DNA of 64,000 nt from an uncultured bacterium. Lineage in GTDB: Bacteria > Babelota > Babeliae > Babelales > Vermiphilaceae. The notes under the pieces are model-generated. The model saw only the letters and a list, made by a program, of their open reading frames with translations, ran no database searches and was not told where the DNA came from. The DNA is taken from positions 640,001 to 704,000 of the forward strand of contig OY970172.1 in NCBI GenBank assembly GCA_963707655.1. Reading direction: 5' to 3'. Within the stretch, counting starts at the first letter, position 1, and every line of letters begins with the position of its first letter. Below are positions 25,747-60,129 of this stretch, piece by piece. The translations under genes were made by a program, and so were the position numbers.

Positions 25747-26517
25747 TTAATGCTGATAAAATTTGTTAACCCATTTTTCTATGCGTTCTTCTACTACGGG
25801 CCAATTGATATTATCCCACATTACTTTTAAATATTCTGCGCGGTTAATGCCAAAATCAATCATATAAGCATGTTCATACGTATCAATCATTAAAATGGGC
25901 AATACCAGGACCGGTACCGTCTCATTGTGCGCATCAAGAAGAAAATTAGAAACCAGATTGTCAGCTATGCAAAACCCAGTCATTACCCAACCACGCGCGC
26001 AACCGGCGGTGGCAATGAGATCTTTTTTAAAGGCCTCGATAGAGCCAAAGTTTTTGATTAACAGTGCGCGCGTCTGAGGACCCATCTCTTTGTTATTACC
26101 GCCTAAATTATCAAAATAAAGTTCATGCAAAAGTGCTCCGTTTAATGAAAAAGTTTCTGCAACCTTTAATGCCCTGAGCGGCGCATAGCTGGCAGCAACT
26201 TCATCTTTGTTTACACGGTAGAGCGCTTGTTCTATTTCGTTTCTTTTTTTTACGTATCCTTGATACAGCTTTTCATGCTGCTCAAGCTGTGATTTGGTTA
26301 ACCCATGAATAGTGGCAAAATCGAACGTACGTGGTTGATAATTATGAAGAACAGGAGCTGTTGCCTTTGCTTCTTCCGCTGTGTCCGCCACCGCTTTTTT
26401 CCCCAACACGATGGTATCAGTTGATTGCGACTCTCGCTGCTGGGTCACCCTGAAAATAAACAGCATGACAACAACGGTAAGTAGCGCAGTGACACCGTGA
26501 GAAAAAAATGAACGCAT
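25747..26517 (-). CDS. Fe/Mn superoxide dismutase family protein with N-terminal membrane anchor
   Basis: QHEKLYQGY, LLHELYF, DTYEHAY metal-ligand motifs; NINW. Confidence 0.85.
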   Translation of the reverse strand: MRSFFSHGVTALLTVVVMLFIFRVTQQRESQSTDTIVLGKKAVADTAEEAKATAPVLHNYQPRTFDFATIHGLTKSQLEQHEKLYQGYVKKRNEIEQALYRVNKDEVAASYAPLRALKVAETFSLNGALLHELYFDNLGGNNKEMGPQTRALLIKNFGSIEAFKKDLIATAGCARGWVMTGFCIADNLVSNFLLDAHNETVPVLVLPILMIDTYEHAYMIDFGINRAEYLKVMWDNINWPVVEERIEKWVNKFYQH

Positions 26518-26667
26518 GAATAACTCCTTGATTATCGACTTTTTTGTTTACCCTAACAAAAATGCATCTTCCATGACTATATTTACTATGAAGAAACACT
26601 TGCTTATTATGAGGTAGTTTTATAAGGTGAACTTAAATTTAATTATTTGAACAGAGAAGGAAAGAAA

Positions 26668-27102
26668 ATGCTTTCATTTTTTGCCGATTTTTTCTTATCA
26701 GAATGGCTGTGGAGCGTTACATGGGGCATGTACCACATCCCAATCAATATTTTTATTATGTTCTTGCTGACCAAGTTAACGGTGCATTACGGATCACGCT
26801 CAACGTTAGCCTTAACAGTTTCAGCAAATATTTTTGGCCTTGTAGCATTTACTGTTTTGGTTGGGAGCATCATCATCTTTGTTGTAGGACTCAACTATTT
26901 ACCCTCAGAAAGTGCCTACAGCGGTGAATATAGCAGCTTTGTGGCATCTTTATTTTTGGGAATTTTTTATGCGTTGTTGCAATCGTTCTTTTTTTATTTG
27001 ATTAATAAAAGATACCGCATTCAACTCTTGCATATGATTGCCATTGCTATGCTGAGCAATATTATGACTGCTCAGGTTGTTTATCTTTTACTAAATCATT
27101 AA
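26668..27102 (+). CDS. Hypothetical membrane protein (about 4 TM)
   Basis: Hydrophobic ORF; AAGGA RBS before MLSFF. Confidence 0.7.
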   Translation: MLSFFADFFLSEWLWSVTWGMYHIPINIFIMFLLTKLTVHYGSRSTLALTVSANIFGLVAFTVLVGSIIIFVVGLNYLPSESAYSGEYSSFVASLFLGIFYALLQSFFFYLINKRYRIQLLHMIAIAMLSNIMTAQVVYLLLNH

Positions 27103-29302
27103 AGAGTGGCCCAACCGATATTCCCTCAGCGTTTCTTCCTGCCGCTTGCTGACCAAGCGCGATTATAACATCGATGAATTCGCGTGGTTTAATGCCTATT
27201 TCTGCCGCTTGGTGAAAAATACAGGTTGCGGGAGTCATGCCGGGCAATGTGTTGATTTCCAGAATCACTACCCGCTCCGTTCCCGTTTTGCTTTGCTGCG
27301 CATTTTGATAAAAGCAGTCAATGCGCGCATATCCTTTGCATCCCAAAGTTTCATACACCGCTTCCATTGTTCGCTGCACAAGAGCAATTGCTGCCGATGG
27401 TAATGGTGCCGGCGTCTGGTTTTCGCCTGCACCGGGCAAAAATTTTTCTTGAATAGAAAGCACGTCTTTTGTTGTTATGGTTTGACTTGGCGGTAATGCA
27501 TGCGCTCTCGCGTTGCCAATAACCCCAACGGTAAGCTCCATACCAACAATATATTCCTCAACAAGTGCATGCTCTTTATTATTCTCAAAGATACAGCTGA
27601 GTGCCTGTAGTAACTGTTGCTCACTGCTTATTTTTTGTACCATAACACTGCAACCGTCATCGTGCGGTTTGACAATTAAGGGGAAGGGAATCTGTTCTGT
27701 AATTTTTTTAGCCATCATTACTTGATCTAATTGCCATTCATGTTTGGCGATAAGTATATGACCCGGAACATTAAATCCTTTATTTTTCAAAAACACGTTG
27801 GTTTTAAATTTATCCATACATAAAGCGCTGGTAAGAACCCCAGAGCCGTTGTAGGCAAGACCAAGCATTTCTAAAGTTCCCTGAACACAGCCATTTTCAC
27901 CCTGGCCACCGTGCAGCGCAATAAACACAAAATCAGCTATTTCAGGCAATCTGCCCCAGGCTACGCGTGATGAAGGCTCTATGAGCTGTTCAATTTCTGC
28001 TGTTGAACTGCGCACCAATAAACGTTGTGTTATATGATACAGCTCTGAGTCTTTGTTTAAAAACAGAGGAAGAACAGTATATTTTTCGCTCGACAATTTA
28101 TACACAATGTTGCGCCCAGATTCCAATGAAATCTCTTTTTCATTTGATGTGCCGCCCATTAAAACAGCAACTCGCATTTTTTGTGTCGGCATCAGATCTT
28201 CCTGTTCTTTTTTATTATTTACCTGCTCAAGCATGCCATACTGCTCAAGAGATGATTGAATAAGGTGGTTGATCAGCTGAGGATGACTCATCCCCTCTTC
28301 TGCCGCCTCCCGAAAGACAAAGCTTGATGGTGAAAGACCTGAGAAGCTATTGGGGTCAATAATTATTACTTCATGCTCTTTGGTTAAAAAACCATCAATA
28401 CGAGAAAGAGTGCGCATGCCCAGAATTTCAGTTGCCTGAATACAGGCTTCTTTAATTTTTGCTCTATTTTCTTGCGAACAGCGAGCCGGCGTGAATTCAA
28501 CTGCTTTTCCGGGCATGTATTTTTGTTCATAATCAAAAATAGTATTCTCTTGCTGATGAACCACTTCTGTGGGAGACAAGGCAAAGAAAGATTTTTTCGT
28601 GTAATCATACAAACTCACACATGAAAATTCCATACCTTCAATTTTTTCTTCGATCAACACCTCTTGCTGCCCGTTCGGCGATATGGCAGATGCATAACAA
28701 AGCGCATCATATAAATCATCTTCCTGCAATACAATGCGCACTCCCAAGCTTGAGCCTTCATGGCACGGTTTGACTACATAGGGTGCTCGTATTTTTTTTT
28801 GCGCAAGATCTGCCAAAATTGTTTGCTTGTGCTGTTCAAAATTGTTGATGCGCTCAACAGTAAGAGTTATCCCTCGTGCAACGCGAATGCCATGCATAGA
28901 GAGAATATCTTTTTGCATACTTTTATTCATGCCCAAAGCACTTGCCAACACTCCCGAGCCCAGATAGGGGATGCGCAACAGTTCGAGAAATCCTTGCAGT
29001 CGCCCATCTTCAGCAAATTGCCCATGCATTGCAATAAAAACAAAATCGACACATCTCTTTAAATCATCCCATATTATTTTTTGGGCCTCTTTTTCAAGTC
29101 GATGTTCAAAATCAGTTATTTTGCCTCTGTGGAGAAAATGCCAGGGCAACACGTATAGCGTACCGTGTAAAGATTGAAATAATGGAACAATGTCGTAGCA
29201 ATGAGTATCAAGATGGTCACATACCGTGCGACCGGAATTGAAAGAGACTTCTCTTTCAATTGATGTTCCACCCATTAATATGCCAACACGCAGTTTTTTC
29301 AT
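27062..29302 (-). CDS. ddl: Tandem two-domain D-alanine--D-alanine ligase family protein
   Basis: Two complete Ddl modules: GGTSIEREVS/GGTSNEKEIS, HGQFAEDG/HGGQGENG, YxGSGVL, VKP, RIDxF; EINTLPG in the second module. Confidence 0.9.
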   Translation of the reverse strand: MKKLRVGILMGGTSIEREVSFNSGRTVCDHLDTHCYDIVPLFQSLHGTLYVLPWHFLHRGKITDFEHRLEKEAQKIIWDDLKRCVDFVFIAMHGQFAEDGRLQGFLELLRIPYLGSGVLASALGMNKSMQKDILSMHGIRVARGITLTVERINNFEQHKQTILADLAQKKIRAPYVVKPCHEGSSLGVRIVLQEDDLYDALCYASAISPNGQQEVLIEEKIEGMEFSCVSLYDYTKKSFFALSPTEVVHQQENTIFDYEQKYMPGKAVEFTPARCSQENRAKIKEACIQATEILGMRTLSRIDGFLTKEHEVIIIDPNSFSGLSPSSFVFREAAEEGMSHPQLINHLIQSSLEQYGMLEQVNNKKEQEDLMPTQKMRVAVLMGGTSNEKEISLESGRNIVYKLSSEKYTVLPLFLNKDSELYHITQRLLVRSSTAEIEQLIEPSSRVAWGRLPEIADFVFIALHGGQGENGCVQGTLEMLGLAYNGSGVLTSALCMDKFKTNVFLKNKGFNVPGHILIAKHEWQLDQVMMAKKITEQIPFPLIVKPHDDGCSVMVQKISSEQQLLQALSCIFENNKEHALVEEYIVGMELTVGVIGNARAHALPPSQTITTKDVLSIQEKFLPGAGENQTPAPLPSAAIALVQRTMEAVYETLGCKGYARIDCFYQNAQQSKTGTERVVILEINTLPGMTPATCIFHQAAEIGIKPREFIDVIIALGQQAAGRNAEGISVGPLFNDLVKDKQPEQS

Positions 29303-49342: not shown

Positions 49343-49936
49343 GTGCAAGAGAAGCATATTGGTATAGTTCTGAAAAATTATTTTCCCAAGAAATGCAAGC
49401 TATCGTTACTCGATAACAAAATGGGTAAAATAAGCGGCGTTCCAACAGCAGGAACTCATGTTGCTGCCGGTTCATTAATCGAATATTCTTTGGTTGAACA
49501 GCCGGCATGTTCTTTTCTTTATAGTATTAATGTGCACGACGTGCCTTTTGCGCTCGCGCAAGAGGATATTCTTTTTTTGCATCACGTACTGGAAATTTGT
49601 TATTATTTTATGCCAATAAAAAGCTATAATCCTACGATTTTCTCATTGTTACATGTATTGTATATGAGTGATGGCTGGTTACACACTATGGCCGTTAAAA
49701 AATTTTTTTTACTTAAATTATTTGTACTGCTGGGATTGTACCCCGAGGACAAAAAATTTAGAACTCCGTCATTTCATCGATTGGTCACTGCGCCATTTGC
49801 GCAGATGCTGAGCGGAGATATAGATTCTTATGATGAAGAGACTGTTAACGAATGGTTGCGTTTGTGTGTCGCATCTCATCCAATAGCAGATAAATTTAAA
49901 ACAACGTATTTTTTAGATAGTTGCAGGGAAATATGA
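49343..49936 (+). CDS. RecO-like DNA repair protein (divergent)
   Basis: GIVLK...LSLLD..MGKI OB-fold-like start; FLLKLFVLLGLYP typical of RecO. Confidence 0.55.
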   Translation: MQEKHIGIVLKNYFPKKCKLSLLDNKMGKISGVPTAGTHVAAGSLIEYSLVEQPACSFLYSINVHDVPFALAQEDILFLHHVLEICYYFMPIKSYNPTIFSLLHVLYMSDGWLHTMAVKKFFLLKLFVLLGLYPEDKKFRTPSFHRLVTAPFAQMLSGDIDSYDEETVNEWLRLCVASHPIADKFKTTYFLDSCREI

Positions 49937-52900
49937 AAAAATTGTTGCACGGTATAATATGCCTGTTAGCTGCCTTTGGTCACCGCATGCACGCAGATCC
50001 TATCGCTGAACTTGAAAAATTAGGAAAACATTTATTGCCCGCCAGCGCAAGCGTTTCTACGCAGGATCAAAAAAAGATCTTTACGAGTAATGTTGAAAGT
50101 AAACAGGCAATGCTGGCCAACTATCAAGCAGAAAAAAAACGTTTGGAAGAAGAAAATAGAACGAATGCTCCCGCTATTACCACTGAATTGGAAGAGACCC
50201 TGAGTAAAATCAGGGTGACTGAGGAAGTGCTGAGAAAAGACCCTGACAATGAATTTTTAAAAAGAAAAAAAACATTGCTGAGCGAAAAATATTATGTTTT
50301 GAAAGAATACCAGCAGGCATTTGAGCAACAGCGCCATTTGATTGATCAGATTATTAAAAATCTTACGAATTATTTGGCCGACCCTGAAAATAAAAAATTC
50401 ATTGAACAGTTTCATGAAAAAAAGAAAACTTTTGAAGAGCTACAGGTTATATACCAAAAAGCTATCGAAGAAGAAAAATCTCTTGAAAGCCTGAATGATC
50501 AGGAAAAGAATGCGATTTCTGAACTAGACAATCGCAAACGAGCTGCAAATGCAGATAATGCTTTGTACCAACAGCACAAAGAGCTGCTTGAGAGTGAGCG
50601 TCCCGTACCTGAAGGCATGACACGCGCTGAAGGGGGCGAGCTATGGCAGCTGCAAGAGCATTTATTTACCGATAAAAAACGCGTTGACGAGCTTAAATTT
50701 GAAGAAATTAAACTTAAGCTTGAGTTGATTAGACTGAAAATGTTCATTGCACGTGTACAGCGGGATACCTTGCGGGATACATTCCGCGACATGACATCCG
50801 AGGTCCAGGTGAGCGAGGCCGATGTCACCAATGTGAAAGAAGATTTAGAAAAGAAAAGGCAACAATTTTACACTAATGTACGATCTGTTGATTATGCCAT
50901 TGAACAGAGCAGTAATGACCTTAAGATGCATAAACAAGAGTTGGAAATTCTCGCCAAGCGCTATAACATAATTCTTGATGCTGATTTGGATAAATGGAGT
51001 AAAGAGCCAAAGCAATTGGTAAGCTCTTATGTAGGCATTTGTGAAGTCGGACTCGAAAACGACATTGTGCTTGCACTGTATCGCAAAAAAGATTACCTCA
51101 AAAGCTTGATACATAAAGAAAATGAAAAAATTAAACAGGAAGAGACACTTCTCAAAATCAAAGAAACATTTCACAAAATCCGTTTTGCAAAATTTAGCGC
51201 CAAAGAGCTCGATCAGGAGCTTAAAAACTATGATTTGATTAAGGCCGGCATCAGAGCTCATATCTCTTTGTACAATGAGCGCAAAAATATGGCGACAGAA
51301 CTTTTAGAAGTCCAAAAACGAGCCTTGGAAAATATAGACCAGCTCAGAAATGATATCAAAAACACTCTTAAAGATACGTTATTTAAGGACTATAGTCGCG
51401 ATTACACCCATTGCCTTGAGCTTATCACCAATGCAATAGAGCGCATTAGAGCACAGATAGATCTCATCAATAAAACGATGGCAACCTATACCGACATTAT
51501 TTTCTTGTTGAGCTCAACCAGCAAACAGATAGATTTTATTGTTTTAGAACTGAATTCAACGACCATCTGGTACCGTCCGCAATATGCGATTTCCTGGGAA
51601 GGATTGATGCGCATTATACCCGATGTTGAGCGGTTTGCTTCCGATTTGACCAGCTATTTCAGTCAAGTAAAACCGGTTGTTTTGCTTAATGCCTTCAAAA
51701 ACAGTATTAAAAATCCGCTTTCTCTCTTTATCTCATTTTTATTATTACTCGTCATGATCCTGCTTTTGCTGCTCGCAAAAATCATGTTACCATCTGCACT
51801 ACATCGCATTCAGGTAGCTGCCCAAACTAGAGCATATGTTTATACGCTGTACATGTTTTTAGTCGCTCTTGGCCGTTTTTTACTCATCCATTTTAATGGC
51901 ATAGCCGTATGGTTGGTGATGTATGGATCATTCAAATTACAGATTATTGATAATCCCTATCTGTACAGCCTCTTTTACTTAATTTCAATACCGTATCTCC
52001 TGTATTTGGCACATCAATTTATTTCTTACTTTGCCTCATTTAATCAAGAACATGGCTATCTGTTTTTAAGCAAAGATTTTGAATTTCGTTTTACGCTCAT
52101 GTTTTCAGCTCTTTTGTATGTGACCATTATCTTATATTTCTTCAAAGAAGCCTTTATGTTGGGCAATTACCGCCGCTCCGAATTGCCGAGCGTGCTTGTT
52201 GCTTTAAACTTTATTTTTATCCAGGTTGTTCTTATTGCCCTTATACCAAAGAATCAGATTGTTAATTTGATTCCGACGCATGACATATGGGGATGGATAC
52301 ATGAACAAATCAATCGCTATTATTATTTGGTTATTTTGTGCATAGTCACCATTATCGTCATGAGCAATCCATATGTAGGTTTTGGCCGCCTGGTTGCCTA
52401 TGTTATCTGGCGCATTCTTTATACCATCATCGTAGTAATAATTCTTCTATGGCTACATCGTCTAATCAAACGTTTTTGTGCCTATTTCTTCTTTGTAGAA
52501 GAAGACGATGTTCAGCGAGAGCGTTTCGCCCATGCGAAAAGTTGGTATGGTTTTGCGGTAATTTTACTCTTTTTATTCTTTATTTTCCTGGGACTCATTA
52601 TATTGGCAAAAGTATGGGGATGGCCGGAGCAGCTGGCAAAAATATCTCACATTCGCGACATTGTTCACGGATTGCAACACCCTTTCACCAATGTCGATCA
52701 AAAACCTGTCTCTGTCTGGACCATTTTGCGCCTTATTTTCTTTATTTTAGGCGGCCTGGGCGTTTCATTTGCCTTTAACCGTTTTGTGATGGGCAAAATC
52801 TTTGATATTTTACTCATTGAACCGGGTATTCAAAATACGATTTCAAGCATTACCTATTATCTCTGCTTTGTTTTATCGGTGATTATCGGATTCAATGTCG

Positions 52901-53511
52901 TCGGGCTTAATTCCTTGCTGTATTGGCTGCTTGCATTAGTAGTGGGTATCGGTTGGATCATTAAAGACCCGGTGAGCGATTTTGTTTCCTATTTTATTAT
53001 CTTGGTACAGCGCCCCATTAAGGTGGGCGATTTAATACGGCTTGAAGAAGAGGGAGCTCCTGGTGTGGTTCGTCGCATCACGCCACGATCGGTATTAATG
53101 AGACGCAGAAACAGCACTACCGTTATTGTTCCAAACTCGGTAATAATCAATAAAAACATTATTAACTGGAACTATACGCGCGACTTTATCGCTTTTGATG
53201 ATATTTTGATTACCATATCGTATGAATCTGACGCAATTTTAGCACAGCGCATTTTTCTCTCTGTATTGAGCGAAAACCCTTACATTTTGAAAAACCCAAA
53301 ACCTGTCGTGCGTCTTGATGACTTTAGTGAAAACGGTTATGTGTTTATGGTCCGCGGCTTTTTGAGTTCAAATTATACGCTCGACCAATGGGATATTGCC
53401 AGCGATGTGCGTCTTTCTATGATTCGCATACTCAAAGAGGCCGGCATTGAAGTGGCGGTACCTATGCGCAGGCTTATTTCTGCCGACAATCAGCTTAACG
53501 AGAATAAATAA
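49933..53511 (+). CDS. Large MscS family mechanosensitive channel (MscK-like architecture)
   Basis: Signal peptide, long coiled-coil periplasmic region, multiple TMs, RPIKVGD..GVVRRI..RS..VIVPNS..INW. Confidence 0.9.
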   Translation: MKKLLHGIICLLAAFGHRMHADPIAELEKLGKHLLPASASVSTQDQKKIFTSNVESKQAMLANYQAEKKRLEEENRTNAPAITTELEETLSKIRVTEEVLRKDPDNEFLKRKKTLLSEKYYVLKEYQQAFEQQRHLIDQIIKNLTNYLADPENKKFIEQFHEKKKTFEELQVIYQKAIEEEKSLESLNDQEKNAISELDNRKRAANADNALYQQHKELLESERPVPEGMTRAEGGELWQLQEHLFTDKKRVDELKFEEIKLKLELIRLKMFIARVQRDTLRDTFRDMTSEVQVSEADVTNVKEDLEKKRQQFYTNVRSVDYAIEQSSNDLKMHKQELEILAKRYNIILDADLDKWSKEPKQLVSSYVGICEVGLENDIVLALYRKKDYLKSLIHKENEKIKQEETLLKIKETFHKIRFAKFSAKELDQELKNYDLIKAGIRAHISLYNERKNMATELLEVQKRALENIDQLRNDIKNTLKDTLFKDYSRDYTHCLELITNAIERIRAQIDLINKTMATYTDIIFLLSSTSKQIDFIVLELNSTTIWYRPQYAISWEGLMRIIPDVERFASDLTSYFSQVKPVVLLNAFKNSIKNPLSLFISFLLLLVMILLLLLAKIMLPSALHRIQVAAQTRAYVYTLYMFLVALGRFLLIHFNGIAVWLVMYGSFKLQIIDNPYLYSLFYLISIPYLLYLAHQFISYFASFNQEHGYLFLSKDFEFRFTLMFSALLYVTIILYFFKEAFMLGNYRRSELPSVLVALNFIFIQVVLIALIPKNQIVNLIPTHDIWGWIHEQINRYYYLVILCIVTIIVMSNPYVGFGRLVAYVIWRILYTIIVVIILLWLHRLIKRFCAYFFFVEEDDVQRERFAHAKSWYGFAVILLFLFFIFLGLIILAKVWGWPEQLAKISHIRDIVHGLQHPFTNVDQKPVSVWTILRLIFFILGGLGVSFAFNRFVMGKIFDILLIEPGIQNTISSITYYLCFVLSVIIGFNVVGLNSLLYWLLALVVGIGWIIKDPVSDFVSYFIILVQRPIKVGDLIRLEEEGAPGVVRRITPRSVLMRRRNSTTVIVPNSVIINKNIINWNYTRDFIAFDDILITISYESDAILAQRIFLSVLSENPYILKNPKPVVRLDDFSENGYVFMVRGFLSSNYTLDQWDIASDVRLSMIRILKEAGIEVAVPMRRLISADNQLNENK

Positions 53512-54734
53512 TCAGGATACGTAGCTCTATCTTTATTGCGTGTGTCTTGTAGTGCCTGGGCGTAGCCAGCCACCTGGCTTCCTATGCCTTCAGGATACAT
53601 GCTGTACGGCTTGCTCTTAGAATAGTGATGAGTGTATTGCATGATTAAGCTTAGCGCGCTGATGCTCAGACTTGCCATCGACAAGGCATTGTTTTTAACA
53701 TGTTCTTTAATAAAGCTTTTCCACGAAGACTCAAATAATTTTTTATTGCGCATTATTTCATCCAATGCATTTCTAAAATCTTGCTGACACGGATGCGCCT
53801 CATCACGCACCGCTGCATACGCGAGCATTTCTTGTGTTAACTCTTTGATTTCCCGTGCAGAGAAGCCATCAATCTTGTGCGCCATCATCTTGACCATCTC
53901 AGGGTCAATGCTATTGGCTGCATAAAAACTTATTATTTTTTCTCGCATTGCTCTATGGGGAAGATCGATGGCAACAATATGATTGCTGAATCGGCTTTTT
54001 AATGCATCGGGAATATTTTCTAGGCTGTTGGTGGTGCCTATGAAGAGTATGTTTTTATGAGACGAGCATTCATCAATCAATTGCCATAAAGCAACGGCAA
54101 CATCTTGATCGGCTCGTTGATCGTTCTTTTTTTTATCAATAAGACAATGAATTTCATCCAAAATAATCACATAGGGCTGGCTACTATTTTTGATAGAGGT
54201 AATAATGCGCTTCAGGTTTTGAGCGCCGGAATTTTGATACTCGGTAGCTAAAAGAGATGATTGCAGAAAGATAAAGGGGCGCCCAATTTTTTGCGCAATT
54301 GCTTTTGCTATATCAGATTTGCCAACGCCCGGCGGACCAACGAGCAGGAGCTTATCGGTTATTAATAAAGAGCGCAATGCCGGCAACGCATGGGGTGCAC
54401 GTTGAAAACGTTCGATAATGGTTTTAATCCGTGCAGGGCAATCCTGCAATAAATAGGCAACCAATGTATCGTCCAGTCTATCTTCTTGGGGCAATGCATC
54501 AGAAAATTGATCCGCTGATTGCGTGCCTACTGAAGATGACCAAAACAGCTCTTGCGGTATGTCTATGGAGGTAGGAAAACCCTTTTTTCCGGCACCTTCT
54601 AACATTTCTTCAAATGTCTTGTCGCTCATCATATAATTGTCATCAGACAACTCAGGCTGCTCATTTTCTGCGTACATGCCTATGCTGAACAGGCAGATGT
54701 TTAATAAAAATAGCTGATACAAAAGTTTGTTCAT
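53490..54734 (-). CDS. Classic-clade AAA ATPase with signal peptide (copy 3)
   Basis: GPPGVGKS, IILDEIH, GTTN, LKSRF. Confidence 0.88.
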   Translation of the reverse strand: MNKLLYQLFLLNICLFSIGMYAENEQPELSDDNYMMSDKTFEEMLEGAGKKGFPTSIDIPQELFWSSSVGTQSADQFSDALPQEDRLDDTLVAYLLQDCPARIKTIIERFQRAPHALPALRSLLITDKLLLVGPPGVGKSDIAKAIAQKIGRPFIFLQSSLLATEYQNSGAQNLKRIITSIKNSSQPYVIILDEIHCLIDKKKNDQRADQDVAVALWQLIDECSSHKNILFIGTTNSLENIPDALKSRFSNHIVAIDLPHRAMREKIISFYAANSIDPEMVKMMAHKIDGFSAREIKELTQEMLAYAAVRDEAHPCQQDFRNALDEIMRNKKLFESSWKSFIKEHVKNNALSMASLSISALSLIMQYTHHYSKSKPYSMYPEGIGSQVAGYAQALQDTRNKDRATYPDYLFSLS

Positions 54735-54768
54735 GTGAATGTTTTCGGAGTCTTATTTAAATGAATCT

Positions 54769-56220
54769 TTAAGCAGTTTTTTCTTCTTTGGGCGCGCGTT
54801 TGCAATAACGATATATAAAATAACCACCCACACCTACCGCAACAGGCACCCCAACGACTACCGCTGTTGGCGCTGCAGCGACGCTTGCTCCCACCCCAAC
54901 AAGTGTCGCTTTAAGGCCTCCAAGAAGAGTTGCTGCCGTCACTGTTTGTCCGGTAGCCACCGTCGCTACTACAGCAGTTGTTTCAAGCCCTGCGGCTGTC
55001 GACGCCCCAGAAGCGGCTGTTAGAGCAGCAGCTTCCGCAATTTTATCAATTGCATCTTTGTGTTCTCCAGCTTTCTCACAAACCACTTTCCCTGTGCTAA
55101 AAAGCCATTGCCCACCAGAAAGGATCATTGAACCGGCTGAGAGCAACAGACCATATGTTGCTGGATTAGCTGCAATAGGATGATCATTATAAAAGCGCTT
55201 CTCCCAAGATTCGCTTTCCTGTTTTTCGGAAGGGCTGTCTATTTTTAAAATTTGAACTGCGTGCTGTATTACTCCAGGTGTTAATTCAACGTGGTGATCA
55301 CATATTAGGCTTCTAATTCTTTTTGATAAAAATTCGAGATCGCGATGCGAGCAATCGTTGCATTCACGCGCAATAGTCGCAATGAGTTGTTCATTAATAG
55401 TGCCTTCTTTAAGTTCATCTGCCATACGAAATTTTATACTTTTTTCTTTTTCTTCTTGATTGGGTAACCCAATAGTAATTGTATGACTTGCAACCCTGCT
55501 GCGTAGCGTGTCTGGGAGATTATCAGTGCTATTGGCAGTGAAAATAAAGAAAAGATTTACGTTATCCAAAGCATTATCTATAGAAGTCCCAAGTGCAAGT
55601 CCTGTATCCTGCTTGTGAATTTTTTTGATGTCACTAAAGCCATGGAGTTCATCTAAAATAACAACGGCAAAATCTTTATTCATGGCCTGCGCTTTTTCGA
55701 TGGACCTTTGTAGATTTGCTTCAGCTGAATTTTGGTATTCATTACCAAGCGATGCTCCTTGGAGAAAAACAAAAGGCGCGTTTATTTCTTGCGCGATAGC
55801 CTTCGCAATATGTGATTTGCCCCCTCCCGGAGGTCCAACCAATAATATAGCCGAGGTCATGAGATGCTTCTTTTTTGTTTTAACATCTGTGGATTTGTAT
55901 TTTTTAATATTTTTTACAGTGTCACGTAAATTTTTAGGACAGGTTTCTATGAGAAAATCAGCGTATTCTTGATCAAGGCAACCATCGCACAGCGGCTCGT
56001 CTTTCTTCTTGTCGGTCTCGCTTTCTCCGTTTATTTCTTCGTAAAAATCTTCTTCTTCCGCATATTCTGCGGTATCTCTTTTGGGGAAAAGATGCGCTTG
56101 CAAACTCTCATCGCTATACGCATTATCGTGCGCAGGGTTCTTGACGAACTCGGGTGTGATGGCATTAAGTTGTGCGAGCATCAGAACAATGGTTAAGATA
56201 CTGTAACGAATAATTTTCAT
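54769..56220 (-). CDS. Classic-clade AAA ATPase with signal peptide and hydrophobic C-terminal tail (copy 2)
   Basis: GPPGGGKS, VILDELH, FTAN, LRSRV; Ala/Val/Gly-rich tail ending GGYFIYRYCKR. Confidence 0.88.
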   Translation of the reverse strand: MKIIRYSILTIVLMLAQLNAITPEFVKNPAHDNAYSDESLQAHLFPKRDTAEYAEEEDFYEEINGESETDKKKDEPLCDGCLDQEYADFLIETCPKNLRDTVKNIKKYKSTDVKTKKKHLMTSAILLVGPPGGGKSHIAKAIAQEINAPFVFLQGASLGNEYQNSAEANLQRSIEKAQAMNKDFAVVILDELHGFSDIKKIHKQDTGLALGTSIDNALDNVNLFFIFTANSTDNLPDTLRSRVASHTITIGLPNQEEKEKSIKFRMADELKEGTINEQLIATIARECNDCSHRDLEFLSKRIRSLICDHHVELTPGVIQHAVQILKIDSPSEKQESESWEKRFYNDHPIAANPATYGLLLSAGSMILSGGQWLFSTGKVVCEKAGEHKDAIDKIAEAAALTAASGASTAAGLETTAVVATVATGQTVTAATLLGGLKATLVGVGASVAAAPTAVVVGVPVAVGVGGYFIYRYCKRAPKEEKTA

Positions 56221-56272
56221 TATAATTCCTTCTTGTTAATAATGAAATGTGCTGATAAGTTCAATGTTTTAT

Positions 56273-57406
56273 TTATTGAGTAATGGGCGCGGCTATGGCA
56301 ATTTGTTGCTGGTCCTCGGGCTCTGTTGGTTTTTTGTTTTTTTCCACTTCTTCTTTTTTCTTTTTCACATTTGTTCTCTCTGCCGCCGCATAGCCGATAT
56401 TGTACATAGCAAGAGAATTTCCCAAGGCCCCCACAAAAGGCATTACTGCTGGATGATTTCTGCAAAATCGCTGCTGCCAATTTTCCTTTTTTCCGTGCCG
56501 TGCATTGTTAAAGGCTTTGATGTCATTGTCAAAAGCTTCGACTTGTCTCGCTACGCACTCATCAAAAGCTTCTGCCGGCTCATCAAGAAAATCCTCCACC
56601 CAGCGAGACAACGCGGCTAAATGTTCATAGGAAAAATTTTTGGTTTTTTTCGCCAAGGACAGAATAAATTTTTCATTGATCATCTTGTTTTCCGGGGCAT
56701 CTTTAAAAAAGATGTTGAAAGCTTCTACACGCGCCTCTTGGCTAGGATATGTTATGGCAACATGCTGGCGGTTGAGTCGACTCGTTACGCGGGGAGGAAA
56801 ATTTGCCATGTCATAGGTTGTGCAAATAAGAAAAATATTATTGCAAGCGCATCGATCGATAAAACTGCACAAAGGATATTGCGCATGCTCATTGTTCTCT
56901 AAAAGATGATCCATATTGTTCAAAATAATTATTAGTTGCTCATTGCGCTTTTTAGCGGCCCGCGCAAAACATTCTAAATAAGGTTCGCACGCGCTGAAAA
57001 CATATGATTCTATTTGAAGAACGCGAGCCTTCATGTGTTGAGCAATCGCTTTTGCCAAGTCCGCTCTGTCGCTCCCCGTTGGGCCAGTAAGCAAAAGAGT
57101 TCGATCCAAAAAACGTTTTCTGTCCTTTTCGTTATTTCTTGCTTCCATAGCTTCAAAATGTTGTAACAACTCTTTTACTTCTGCGGGACTATATTTTATG
57201 AGAAAGTCTGCATATTCGCTATCTAAACGGCGACTTCGGTTTTTTAATGACTCGTTTATGATGCGAATCTCTTCCTGCTTTTGTGCAATTCTTTGCTGCT
57301 CAGTCAGCTCTACCGGTATATAGGAAGCCTTTGTTTTATGCGACGCTTGCACGTGCAATGAATATATGCTCAAAAAAATCAAGAGATAATAGCTCGTATG
57401 CTTCAT
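56273..57406 (-). CDS. Degenerate AAA ATPase with signal peptide (copy 1)
   Basis: Walker A GPTGSDRA, Walker B IILNNMD, VTSRL; shares LDxEYADFLI and WxxRFxxxHP with copy 2. Confidence 0.8.
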   Translation of the reverse strand: MKHTSYYLLIFLSIYSLHVQASHKTKASYIPVELTEQQRIAQKQEEIRIINESLKNRSRRLDSEYADFLIKYSPAEVKELLQHFEAMEARNNEKDRKRFLDRTLLLTGPTGSDRADLAKAIAQHMKARVLQIESYVFSACEPYLECFARAAKKRNEQLIIILNNMDHLLENNEHAQYPLCSFIDRCACNNIFLICTTYDMANFPPRVTSRLNRQHVAITYPSQEARVEAFNIFFKDAPENKMINEKFILSLAKKTKNFSYEHLAALSRWVEDFLDEPAEAFDECVARQVEAFDNDIKAFNNARHGKKENWQQRFCRNHPAVMPFVGALGNSLAMYNIGYAAAERTNVKKKKEEVEKNKKPTEPEDQQQIAIAAPITQ

Positions 57407-57717
57407 GAATTCTTTCTGCTTTATTGTCTTTTAAAAATTGACAAATGAAATATTGTTAAGATATGTTTTTTCTGTTCTTTTTTAAAATGATAAAAAATCA
57501 GATTTCAAATTATCCTATTTTCTGCTTTTGTCAAAGCAAACGAGCCAAAAAAGTGAAATAAAAAAATAATATTTTTTTATTATATACGTGGATAATTCGC
57601 CAAAAACAGCTATTTTTTATCTTATTTGATACATTGCAAAATCTTTTTGTCCGTTGATTTTAAAATTAGATTTTTTTATACTGCGATGAGCTTTTTTTAT
57701 GCAACCGATTATCAACC

Positions 57718-59772
57718 ATGAGGAATGTATTAATGAATTTGAGACATTGGTCACTGATAGTATTGTTTATTACTGCCTGTGCGCAGGGGAAAAGAGAATA
57801 TGATGGTTTGTTTATTTCTGCCATTCCTCAACACTGTGTTATAGAGCAAACGTCCCCACTGCCATTACCGTTGCCATTGTATGTGCATGATCTTGCATTT
57901 GGTCCGGGGATTACTCATAGTGTTGACGGTACCGCATTAATTCAGACGTATATAAGCGCAGATCAACAAGCATTATTCAACAAACAGCCGCGAATCAGCG
58001 TAGACTTCAAATCTGAAATGTTAGGCCTACCTCTATTTGTGGGCGCGTCTCCTGCTTCGATAATAAATTTATGCATGGATATTGCTCGATGGATAAAGAC
58101 AACGTTAGCGACACTCAATCGATTACCCAACAATTGCGGTACTTTTAATGCAAATGCGTGGGCTTCTTTTTGTATCAATGAAAGAAGACTTTCTTATCCA
58201 TTTAATAATGCCGAGAGCAGCTATTTTAATGTTTTCACTCCTGAAATTAGAATGAGCTTATTGCATGATTATGCATTATATGAATACTCTGGCTACATAG
58301 ATTTTCTTAAATCATTTCCCGAATTTGAAGCTTTTGTAGAGCGTTTGCACGCTGATCAGGCACGTTTTAACATGTCGCTCGATTATCATGAGGTGAGTGA
58401 AAAAAAGCAACAGATAATCAAAAATGTCGTAGCCAATTTATCCGCACAAATCAAGGAAAAGCGCGCTGCCGAATTTGAAGCTAAAGAGGCTGAACGCATC
58501 GCTTTGATGGAAAAAACGCGTGAAGACAAGATAGTGAAAGAGGAATTGATATATCACTATAACCGCTATGCAGAAATAGCGCAGAACAATCCCGACGCAC
58601 CTGCCCGTTGGTCGGATTACAGAGCAATCATTGGCAACTTTCTCGATGGCAATGATAAGGCAACTTACACAGAAACATTTTCTGTTGATCAGCAAGGCGT
58701 GGCTCTTTTGAGCACAAAAGCGATTCCGGTTGAGCTTTTCGGGCAATGTACCGGCAACAATATGCAGCAGTTTTTACATCGCGGTTTTCTTGATTTGCTC
58801 GCACAAGCAGCCGATATAGATGAAAAAGATCTGCAATCATTGTTAGTTGATGGTGTTATTGTGGGGCAAGAGTTTAATCATGCCGGATACACCCATAAAG
58901 CCTTTAGTATAGCCAATTTTTGCCATACGCTTGTTGAACATTCGAAAGGGTTAGTGGAAGGGGCTTGGCACAGCGTTTGTAATGTGGCACATGCAGCATG
59001 CCATCCGATAAAAACAGCGCAAGCGATTAAAAATGGTGCTATTGCTATTGGCAAAGATCTGGATGAATTATTTAGGCACTTTAACAAGACAATCGATTAC
59101 CTGGACACGGTAAAAATTACTCTTCTTACCGATCGCACCCTAGCGAAACAAATGACCAAAGTCTTTCTTGAAGAAGAAGGAGTATATTGGAAGATGATGG
59201 GCGCTGCATTTCGCGATCGTTTAATCGCTTACGCAAAATTGACCGATCGTGAGCGCGGCAAATTGGTTGGCCGTCTGGCGATGGATAATTATCTTTTTGG
59301 CCGCGCATTATACTTATCGTCCCACATAAGCACATTCACAAAAACAAGAATATTTAAAGCGTTTAAAGCAGCAAAATCAGCACAGACGGCAGAAGAAATT
59401 GCGCTCGCAACCGCCGAAGGGATAGAAGTACCGCTTGGAAAAGCAGCTTCAGAGAATGTTCTTGCTCAGGAAATTGCGCAAACTGGAAAAATAGATCTGA
59501 ACTATCTTACAAATCAATCTGGTGAGGCTATTTTAAAAAATGGCTATTATGAGATTAATGGATTTAAGTTTAGTGAGCGTTACTACAAGCGTCTTTGGGA
59601 TAGCGGCAGACCTGCCCCTTCGTTAATAGCGAAATTGATATTAGAAAGCCCTGAAGTTGTTGTAGCTGACCAATTCAAGCAAGGGTTTTATAAGTACGTA
59701 GCGGATGGCTGGGAAATGGTTTATAATCCTTCCACAAAAGAAGTATGGCATTTACAACCTATAAGGGGATAA
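57718..59772 (+). CDS. Putative polymorphic toxin (exported; C-terminal toxin-like tip)
   Basis: Signal peptide; helical body; Ala/Glu linker (EEIALATAEG); compact aromatic tip ...GWEMVYNPSTKEVWHLQP; small gene follows after 3 bp. Confidence 0.55.
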   Translation: MRNVLMNLRHWSLIVLFITACAQGKREYDGLFISAIPQHCVIEQTSPLPLPLPLYVHDLAFGPGITHSVDGTALIQTYISADQQALFNKQPRISVDFKSEMLGLPLFVGASPASIINLCMDIARWIKTTLATLNRLPNNCGTFNANAWASFCINERRLSYPFNNAESSYFNVFTPEIRMSLLHDYALYEYSGYIDFLKSFPEFEAFVERLHADQARFNMSLDYHEVSEKKQQIIKNVVANLSAQIKEKRAAEFEAKEAERIALMEKTREDKIVKEELIYHYNRYAEIAQNNPDAPARWSDYRAIIGNFLDGNDKATYTETFSVDQQGVALLSTKAIPVELFGQCTGNNMQQFLHRGFLDLLAQAADIDEKDLQSLLVDGVIVGQEFNHAGYTHKAFSIANFCHTLVEHSKGLVEGAWHSVCNVAHAACHPIKTAQAIKNGAIAIGKDLDELFRHFNKTIDYLDTVKITLLTDRTLAKQMTKVFLEEEGVYWKMMGAAFRDRLIAYAKLTDRERGKLVGRLAMDNYLFGRALYLSSHISTFTKTRIFKAFKAAKSAQTAEEIALATAEGIEVPLGKAASENVLAQEIAQTGKIDLNYLTNQSGEAILKNGYYEINGFKFSERYYKRLWDSGRPAPSLIAKLILESPEVVVADQFKQGFYKYVADGWEMVYNPSTKEVWHLQPIRG

Positions 59773-59775
59773 TGT

Positions 59776-60129
59776 ATGAAAAATTTATTGATCGATGAAA
59801 GACAATTAGAAGAACAATTAAGAGAAATAGAAGAGAATGGCCAATTTTTAGCGGAGAAGCTTTTATCATTAAGCCGAGAAATTAAATATATTTTGTCCCA
59901 AATAAAATTATCTGAGAATGCAACAACTGCAGGTAAATACTTTGATTTATTACAAAAAACTCAAGTGGCGCTAGCAAAGCTTATGTACGTCAGCAAAATA
60001 GGGATACCTGATCCTTTATGTTGGTTTGTTCGTGATTTTGAGCGCATTGATGATAATGAATTACGCAATTATATTTTTAACAAAATTAAAAACGATGAAT
60101 ATTCTTTTGGCAAAAAATTGAATGGCTAA
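59776..60129 (+). CDS. Putative immunity protein
   Basis: 117 aa, no signal peptide, AT-rich, RBS (AAGGGG) within the end of the upstream gene. Confidence 0.5.
   Translation: MKNLLIDERQLEEQLREIEENGQFLAEKLLSLSREIKYILSQIKLSENATTAGKYFDLLQKTQVALAKLMYVSKIGIPDPLCWFVRDFERIDDNELRNYIFNKIKNDEYSFGKKLNG

Follow-up and report, generated by a model that had tools for sequence, protein, structure and literature searches.

Introduction

The polymorphic toxins of the MafB type, which use Sec and the type II secretion system (T2SS), combine a leader, a conserved N-terminal body and a swappable C-terminal nuclease with a downstream immunity gene (Zhang et al., 2012; PMC3482391). Here, we describe a toxin family of the same general organization that lies next to apparently exported ATPases of the AAA type in Babelota. 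Our starting point is a window, i.e. a stretch of 64,000 nucleotides from an uncultured member of the Vermiphilaceae (assembly GCA_963707655.1, contig OY970172.1, positions 640,001 to 704,000 of the forward strand), in which three AAA genes, A1, A2 and A3, stand beside a toxin gene and an immunity-like gene. The Babelota, also known as Dependentiae, are intracellular parasites of protists.

Both sets of toxins have tips in common, namely EndoU, Ntox17, Ntox21, Ntox35, the colicin D and E3 types and, in one case, HINT (Zhang et al., 2012; PMC3482391). They differ in that the Babelota core matches no Pfam or NCBIfam model, that its partner is a presumably exported AAA ATPase rather than MafA or CdiB, and that the majority of copies represent full-length loci and not tip cassettes. 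In the portion of PMC3482391 considered here, AAA ATPases are named only for the type VI secretion system and PVC, and TM6 has 0 occurrences. For the tip of the window toxin, the closest described system is the CdiA-CT/CdiI pair of E. coli NC101 (PDB 5i4q/5i4r), whose CdiA-CT is an EF-Tu-dependent tRNase requiring R200, H248 and Y192 (PMC5737660). The two share the fold as well as the catalytic and EF-Tu-binding residues; unlike CdiA of NC101, however, the window toxin has no filamentous haemagglutinin body and no CdiB-type gene beside it.

On the side of the ATPases, AAA rings of the FtsH lineage are known to move proteins across membranes. The FtsH of the target is required for nuclease bacteriocins to pass the inner membrane (PMC9040868), and in chloroplasts the import motor (Ycf2-FtsHi) is built of FtsH-derived ATPases, a likeness that may extend to mixed rings with inactive-type members. 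These motors face the cytoplasm or the stroma and are part of the receiving side, whereas the Babelota ATPases would be exported by the toxin producer, lack a protease domain and would be anchored at their C-terminus. AAA ATPases encoded together with toxin cargo are represented by Pvc15/Afp15, ClpV and EccA, which work in the cytoplasm for an apparatus encoded by many genes; none of them is found in the loci described here, where the NCBIfam scores for EccA and TssH are far below cut-off. Torsin lacks an arginine finger of its own. Together with LAP1/LULL1, it provides the example of a signal-peptide-bearing AAA+ protein that resides outside the cytoplasm and is paired with a catalytically dead protein of AAA fold (PMC4358337); in Babelota, by contrast, the active copies keep the arginine finger and the dead ones often lose it.

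The nearest prior report comes from the same phylum and describes nine leader-AAA-Ulp1-like proteins, i.e. AAA proteins with predicted signal peptides, in Babela massiliensis (Pagnier et al., 2015; PMC4378268). The proteins described here have no peptidase domain, and a link to toxin-immunity genes is not reported in the portion of that paper considered. The openly accessible main texts that we searched contain no report of an exported AAA-toxin pairing in Babelota or Dependentiae, although the supplements of PMC4378268 may list some of the genes; PMC12172432 mentions neither toxin, secretion nor ATPase. While polymorphic toxin systems themselves are already known, the polymorphic toxin core domain and its putatively exported AAA partner are new. 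In the following, we argue, at a probability of about 0.6, that a Babelota-wide family of exported AAA proteins acts as motors that serve the delivery of polymorphic toxins.

Results

Three AAA genes and a toxin-immunity pair

The initial annotation of the window had placed three co-oriented AAA paralogs, one of them inactive, at this site, and our analysis bears this out. All three lie on the minus strand and are predicted to be exported: A1 (56273-57406; 377 aa) is a pseudo-ATPase with a leader, a full AAA fold and degenerate motifs; A2 (54769-56220; 483 aa) has intact motifs and a Gly/Ala-rich tail with a hydrophobic end; and A3 (53490-54734; 414 aa), likewise with intact motifs, is convergent on an MscS gene. 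Each exceeds the cut-off of the Pfam AAA model PF00004 (E-values of 6e-9, 2.5e-20 and 6e-28 for A1, A2 and A3). The pre-AAA motif that had been noted as shared is part of a more extensive correspondence, as the pre-AAA helix, the core and the lid align across the trio, with 24-30% identity to A3. Walker A and B, the EYQNS loop and the S-R pair are present in both A2 and A3, as described earlier, and both carry the K-T/S of Walker A, the DE of Walker B, the N of sensor-1 and the arginine finger; A1 retains only the arginine. In its Walker A motif (GPTGSDRA), D113, R114 and A115 replace G-K-S/T, and N163/N164 replace the Walker B D/E, while R210 is kept. Beyond these losses, which had been recognized before, A1 lacks the sensor-1 residue (Y198 for N) and the EYQNS loop. 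The dead motifs do not stem from an assembly error, since they recur in P0121, a sequence from another contig, and since short contigs of runs X1, X2 and X3, possibly from the same strain or source sample, span them with 0 differences. In its AlphaFold model, A1 adopts a complete AAA fold (mean pLDDT 85.4), with p97 D1 as the best Foldseek match. The best matches of the trio (VAT/Cdc48 in the PDB; p97 D1, katanin and Vps4 in Foldseek) are with the classic clade, and we classify all three as classic-clade AAA proteins with an AAA core and a helical lid.

The strongest clue to their function is a neighbour that the initial annotation had missed. Across an AT-rich spacer of 311 bp (57407-57717), a toxin gene diverges from the ATPase genes on the plus strand (57718-59772). 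Its product of 684 aa, which is predicted to be exported, consists of a leader, a helical body, a conserved core with a GNxxQQxxH motif that is evident from the family alignment (58603-59052, plus strand), and a C-terminal tip (59536-59766, plus strand). The leader (57718-57786) ends in a lipobox-like ITAC, which the two closest relatives of the toxin do not have. By both structure and sequence, the tip is homologous to CdiA-CT(NC101) (Foldseek TM 0.78 on the target, 36% identity; sequence E-value 7e-18), and it keeps the equivalents of Y192, W196, R200, E236, H248 and Q250; these matches mark it as a CdiA-CT(NC101)-like tRNase that retains the catalytic residues. An ESM Atlas lead to a colicin E5-like tip (0.89) was superseded by these matches. 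Only 3 bp past the toxin stop follows a leaderless, immunity-like gene of 117 aa (59776-60129, plus strand); the gene downstream of the same tip in another genome, G003, is 39% identical to it (E-value 2e-25). Promoter and terminator counts, including a promoter scan of the 311-bp spacer, were at chance level. A complex prediction for A2, A1 and residues 110-500 of the toxin scored 0.00 against a mark of 0.32, with three chains, unlike the calibration, and counts neither for nor against the toxin as a partner of the ATPases.

The toxin family

The large leader-bearing genes beside the ATPases form a single homology cluster of 29 members, the 684-aa ORF of the window included. Their core gave no match in Pfam, NCBIfam or Foldseek, the last of which matched the toxin tip only, and no useful match in the ESM Atlas (best 0.80). 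It is present in 102 of the 230 genomes of the phylum and in 969 clusters at 50% identity; 10 of the latter were looked up, one of which carried a taxon name (Dependentiae). The tips attached to this core vary, falling into 30 tip clusters among 90 toxin genes. Of the 98 toxin genes, 94 were scanned, the four truncated ones being excluded, and 35 tips passed the cut-off of a Pfam toxin model (EndoU 21, Ntox21 7, Ntox17 2, Ntox35 2, colicin E3-type 2 and colicin D 1).

In 90 of the 98 cases, a co-oriented gene follows directly behind the toxin; 82 of these genes encode at most 260 aa, and 73 of the 82 are leaderless. Named immunity families were recognized in 8 of the 88 downstream genes that were scanned (two of the 90 were left out), namely CdiI_N in five, CdiI_ImmP in two and Imm32 in one; all five CdiI_N genes lie behind Ntox21 tips. 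Tips and downstream genes co-vary: among 4005 pairs, 234 are similar in their tips and 123 in their downstream genes, and 114 are similar in both, compared with 7.2 expected. On these sequence comparisons, the family is a polymorphic toxin system with a common core, swappable nuclease tips and co-varying immunity genes. Shortened tip-immunity copies behind full toxins are few (G009 C6, G020, G232), and most extra copies are full-length.

Membership in the contact-dependent inhibition (CdiBAI) systems was considered and rejected, as 27 full-length toxins had no filamentous haemagglutinin or Omp85-type match in Pfam and no such gene is found at the locus; a genome-wide ShlB search matched no control genome and is uninformative on CdiB. 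One member of the family (L039:2267-4108 in G017) has a PT-HINT domain right after its leader. The G013 genome, 1.5 Mb in size, holds 17 toxin-core genes, none of them near an ATPase of the clade described here.

The genome of the window itself, one contig of 1.09 Mb that is 88.6% complete, encodes seven core toxins, two of which lie beside ATPases. The second such locus (G000:C1:1050371-1055161, L091) reads exported-type AAA (357 aa), leader protein (183 aa), toxin (907 aa) and immunity-like gene (125 aa), and adjoins type II secretion genes. Five more toxin-immunity pairs, with tips that include colicin D and Ntox17, are found without an ATPase beside them at G000:C1:1006585-1016788 and 316142-318043 (L092, L093).

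Linkage of the ATPases to the toxins

Relatives of the trio were found across the order, frequently in tandem. The second region of homology served to separate an RxGR type, which comprises FtsH, FtsH-like and multi-domain paralogs, from a single-Arg type, to which A1, A2 and A3 belong. In the loci fetched around the ATPase hits, with the genome of the window excluded, a toxin-family gene lies within 4 kb of 61 of the 71 scorable single-Arg genes, compared with one of the eight scorable RxGR-type controls; for 17 further single-Arg and 15 further RxGR genes, the flanks were too short for scoring. In a held-out set of 44 new sites, analyzed with fixed models, a toxin lies within 4 kb at 26 of the 33 scorable loci; seven had no toxin (two of them of the RxGR type), and 11 had short flanks. 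A rough chance level, based on about three toxins per 1.15 Mb, is ~3%. As a trivial control, none of the 80 generic ATPase loci among the matches listed for named genomes, which included no Babelota record, had a toxin-family gene.

The commonest layout is one or more ATPases, followed by the toxin and the immunity gene. In 25 of 68 linked cases, no more than 150 bp separate the ATPase gene from the toxin gene that directly follows it, several of them with overlapping stop and start. Two different, intact ATPase paralogs frequently precede one toxin (L296, L304, L309, L313, L320-L322, L324 and L335), an arrangement that is compatible with mixed rings, though no proof of their existence. Given these observations, we think it highly probable that the ATPases work with the toxins.

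Extent and origin of the AAA family

Homologs of A1 were found in its own species only, with weak matches only in 200 further genomes of the order; a metagenome scan with the A2 clade gave no match; and the named close homologs of A3 and of the neighbouring protein belong to Ca. Dependentiae or Babeliales, which places the genome in Babelota. Among the 153 copies scored for motifs, 125 are intact and 28 degenerate. A pore-loop aromatic, followed by Q/K/R-N-S, is found in 111 of the 125 intact copies and is missing in A1.

Despite its similarity to FtsH, the family cannot be assigned to it, as its members have no second helix, no HExxH (M41) protease and a single-Arg motif, and score 58.6 bits with the NCBIfam FtsH model (cut-off 600). 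Likewise, membership in Cdc48/p97 is contradicted by the single AAA domain and a score of 59.8 bits (cut-off 802). A quick tree of 71 rows, 44 of them drawn at random from the set and with the degenerate copies excluded, joins the family with FtsH and the Babelota FtsH-like paralogs (SH-aLRT 96), against a thin outgroup of three Cdc48-like proteins and one archaeal protein that contains no Vps4, Msp1 or Rpt; sequence scores place PAN and Cdc48 at least as high as FtsH. An origin of the family from FtsH AAA domains is therefore best described as probable.

Several related architectures were observed alongside the family. A second kind of apparently exported AAA protein, with a leader and two or three FtsH/Cdc48-like AAA domains, is found in the genome of the window (G000:C1:473103-475583, L094) and at G110:C22, G028:C12, G035:C20 and G065:C5; these proteins lack a second membrane helix, their genes have no toxin in the vicinity, and in their three-domain form the first AAA domain is degenerate. 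Fusions of a leader, ankyrin repeats and an AAA domain, 1200-1900 aa in length, occur at L307:3782-8029 and L155:1321-5226, both with ankyrin profiles; similar long proteins are found in L328, L333, L341 and L342, and one ankyrin-AAA fusion sits 147 bp upstream of a toxin. Proteins with a leader, a coiled coil, a hydrophobic segment and an AAA domain (L033:3819-5510 in G024, L179 in G013, L163 in G003 and L344 in G035) presumably resemble mitochondrial ATAD3, which PDB and NCBIfam searches did not confirm. Lastly, L013 (G039) and L014 (G026) contain FtsH genes of ~880 aa in which the AAA domain that precedes the protease is duplicated.

Topology, membrane attachment and energy

Leaders were scored with our own heuristic of hydrophobicity and charge rather than with SignalP. 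By this measure, 343 of the 629 ORFs of at least 200 aa in this genome have a leader-like N-terminus, and leaders have been reported on 44% of Chromulinavorax proteins (PMC6561590). A leader is thus ordinary in this genome and unusual only for an AAA protein. Among complete single-Arg family members, 85 of 89 have one, in agreement with the Sec-like leaders that the initial annotation had ascribed to the trio. None of the 89 has a strong second membrane helix ahead of the AAA domain, compared with eight of 29 RxGR-type controls, and six of the 89 have a moderate one; A1, A2 and A3 are likewise without a second helix at this position. Together with the basic n-regions of 74 of the 89 leaders, this would place the AAA domain outside the cytoplasm, as had been suggested from the trio alone, and the ATPases are very probably exported.

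In most family members, the lid is followed by an amphipathic helix of basic and aromatic character and by a moderately hydrophobic stretch of ~20 uncharged residues. In A3, this element corresponds to residues ~338-367 (53634-53723, minus strand), with ~18 uncharged residues. A2 has a terminal hydrophobic segment at residues ~440-470 (54811-54903, minus strand), which is followed by basic residues and conserved in its ortholog in G001, a genome of the same genus. The hydrophobic C-terminal segment that had been attributed to all three proteins is clear in A2 only, with a best 19-residue Kyte-Doolittle mean (KD19) of 2.0, and marginal in A3 (1.3) and A1 (1.1).

An ATPase outside the cytoplasm would need ATP, which the periplasm had been assumed to lack. 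This premise is not supported here: the genome encodes three ATP/ADP translocases, so host ATP would have to cross the periplasm. Furthermore, it encodes two secretins, and no TatC match was found in the 88.6% of it that is covered. In Babela, type II secretion is the only system found, as far as the two reports cover it (PMC4378268, PMC4776705).

History of the trio

A trio conserved as a unit is not supported. In G001, the A3 ortholog (63% identical) stands alone beside the same MscS gene that adjoins A3 in the window. This MscS-family protein (49921-53511; 1196 aa) has a long coiled N-terminal part, and the end of its gene overlaps the end of A3 by 22 bp. Two other G001 loci read toxin, immunity gene, (further ATPase), dead copy and active copy; the A2 ortholog, which has the same tail as A2, lies directly downstream of a dead copy, and the two closest relatives of the window toxin (E-values of 2e-59 and 1e-56) lie just upstream of these dead-active pairs. 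The window thus combines an older A3 with an A1-A2-toxin-immunity module placed next to it, its toxin operon being divergent here. The two genes directly upstream of the A3 ortholog in G001 have look-alikes, compared by their N-termini and length only, at 25747-29302 of the window, ~25 kb away, which points to rearrangement at the A3 locus.

The suggested co-occurrence of dead and active copies, on the other hand, recurs at three loci in two genomes. In a 36-row IQ-TREE phylogeny, the three dead copies group together in a clade of their own (91/82; not starred, with long branches), which is sister to the A2-type active copies (95/94). The branch of A1 has a length of 1.32, and the dead copies are still full-length after 1.3-2.0 changes per site, an argument that the fold is under selection; the short, near-identical A1 pieces in runs X1, X2, X3 and X6 show four differences, too few for dN/dS. 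Accordingly, A1 is an old, retained partner of A2. Whether it also binds A2 physically is, in our estimation, an even bet.

Discussion

Exported ATPases beside toxin-immunity pairs suggest a route of toxin delivery with ATP outside the bacterial cytoplasm. We propose that both the ATPase and the toxin would leave the cytoplasm via Sec, that the ATPases would form rings, often of two different paralogs, and that these rings would attach to a membrane by their amphipathic-plus-hydrophobic C-terminal helix. Their fuel would be ATP from the host, consumed either in the periplasm or inside the host cell. In classic AAA rings, such as those of FtsH and Cdc48, the substrate enters at the N-terminal face and leaves at the C-terminal face. 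With a C-terminal anchor, it would be threaded towards and across the membrane, the reverse of N-anchored FtsH and Msp1, which pull their substrate out of it. The ring could then push the toxin or its nuclease tip towards a bacterial-type cytoplasm, across a membrane that might be the outer membrane of the producer, the envelope of a target or a host organelle. The tips act on tRNA or rRNA and therefore must reach such a cytoplasm; the translation machinery of the host mitochondrion is of this type, too. That the ATPase threads the toxin across a membrane is conceivable at slightly less than even odds. More tentative still is the complete scenario, in which an exported FtsH-derived ring, often heteromeric, sometimes with dead subunits and inserted into a membrane by C-terminal helices, would use host ATP to push a polymorphic nuclease toxin into a host mitochondrion or into a bacterium that competes for the same intracellular niche.

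A number of observations weigh against a role as toxin-delivery motors. The C-terminal helix is weak (KD19 of at least 1.6 in 23 and of at least 1.0 in 60 of the 89 proteins) and missing in one subclade, and the pore loop of the family reads Y-Q/K-N-S-G instead of aromatic-hydrophobic-Gly. The count of 61 in 71 involves some circularity, as neighbours of the ATPases served as seeds for the toxin family, and the genomes are related, so that the linkage cases, though they span many families, are not independent trials. An ATPase is nearby for only 7 of ~51 non-seed toxin genes, and the family profile detected no member of the ATPase clade in G013 (17 toxin cores; one of its mid-scoring hits was inspected), G019 (7) and G008 (2). 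With many toxins and some toxin-rich genomes lacking it, the ATPase is not universally needed. Conversely, the A3 ortholog in G001 has no toxin nearby. Lastly, the only two members found in G029, both directly upstream of toxins, have lost the Walker B Glu and the arginine finger, which suggests that hydrolysis may be dispensable.

A producer-side chaperone explains such dead-only loci and the ATPase-free genomes better, and it is one form of the main rival explanation, which we regard as unlikely on balance: the ATPase would be a helper that stays with the producer, on the exterior of its envelope, acting as a chaperone, a type II secretion loader or a guard that unfolds or clears incoming or misrouted toxin, and would never touch the target. 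A leader and a C-terminal helix together amount to a type I membrane topology, the position upstream of the toxin mirrors that of cdiB and mafA, secretins are present, and the dead copies upstream of the G029 toxins fit a chaperone. Moreover, core toxins with a linked ATPase have a median length of 970 aa (18 genes), compared with 700 aa for those without (40 genes), as if large cargo needed help. Yet in most members the C-terminal helix would make a weak stop-transfer sequence, the ATPase genes, unlike the immunity genes, do not vary with the tip in a qualitative comparison, and the ankyrin-AAA fusions of the same family point to action in a host compartment. These fusions, several of which have no toxin in view, also keep alive the view of the initial annotation, which we consider distinctly improbable, that the proteins are host-directed effector unfoldases acting on host proteins and that their nearness to toxins merely reflects shared plastic islands. 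Consistent with it, the leader-AAA-Ulp1-like fusions of Babela have been interpreted as secreted effectors (PMC4378268), and a toxin is missing from the 4-kb surroundings in 10 of the 71 and 7 of the 33 scorable cases. Chance vicinity in islands is, however, difficult to reconcile with the short or overlapping gene junctions in those 25 of 68 linked cases and with the recurrence of the same gene order in many families, while the leader-bearing FtsH-type paralogs are unlinked to toxins (1 of 8).

The remaining two explanations concern the dead copy and the leaders. The proposal that A1 completes the active site of A2 as an arginine-finger donor, in the manner of Torsin and LAP1, draws on R210, which lies in a confidently folded AAA domain of the model, on the retention of the arginine in 15 of the 28 degenerate copies and on the recurring adjacency of dead and active genes. 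All 125 intact copies, however, own an arginine finger, and 13 of the 28 degenerate ones have lost it, among them the G001 C18 copy, one of the two closest dead relatives of A1, and both members of the dead clade of G028 and G065. As the intact copies keep their own arginine and the degenerate ones often lose theirs, the Torsin-LAP1 logic does not apply, and we give the donor role a low probability, about that of the effector reading or marginally below. Degeneration arose many times in the family, in 28 of 153 copies. A passive, non-catalytic subunit, an adaptor or a brake for A2 fits better. Least probable, and in our view very unlikely, is that the leaders are uncleaved anchors with a cytoplasmic AAA domain, as in Msp1-like proteins, and that A1 is a decaying duplicate. 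The leader calls do come from a heuristic and not from a signal-peptide predictor, and A1 has a long branch and no close homolog outside its own species; but the basic n-regions favour an N-in, C-out orientation, A1 and its two relatives remain full-length, with leader and tail, despite their divergence, and an orthologous active-dead pair is kept in both G028 and G065.

Should the ATPases indeed be injectors, they would be categorically new, as ATP-powered devices that work outside any bacterial cytoplasm and are usable only by energy parasites. They would also offer a new answer to the question of how nuclease toxins cross the last membrane: the known cases borrow the FtsH of the target, whereas here the producer would supply an oppositely anchored motor, an idea that is testable in E. 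coli and in liposomes with small genes. The linkage to toxins provides a first functional lead for bacterial AAA ATPases with export signals, which would be expected to be idle where ATP is absent. Finally, an obligately intracellular phylum with genomes of ~1 Mb maintains a large arsenal of antibacterial-type nucleases and immunity genes. This implies that bacteria compete with one another within protist cells.

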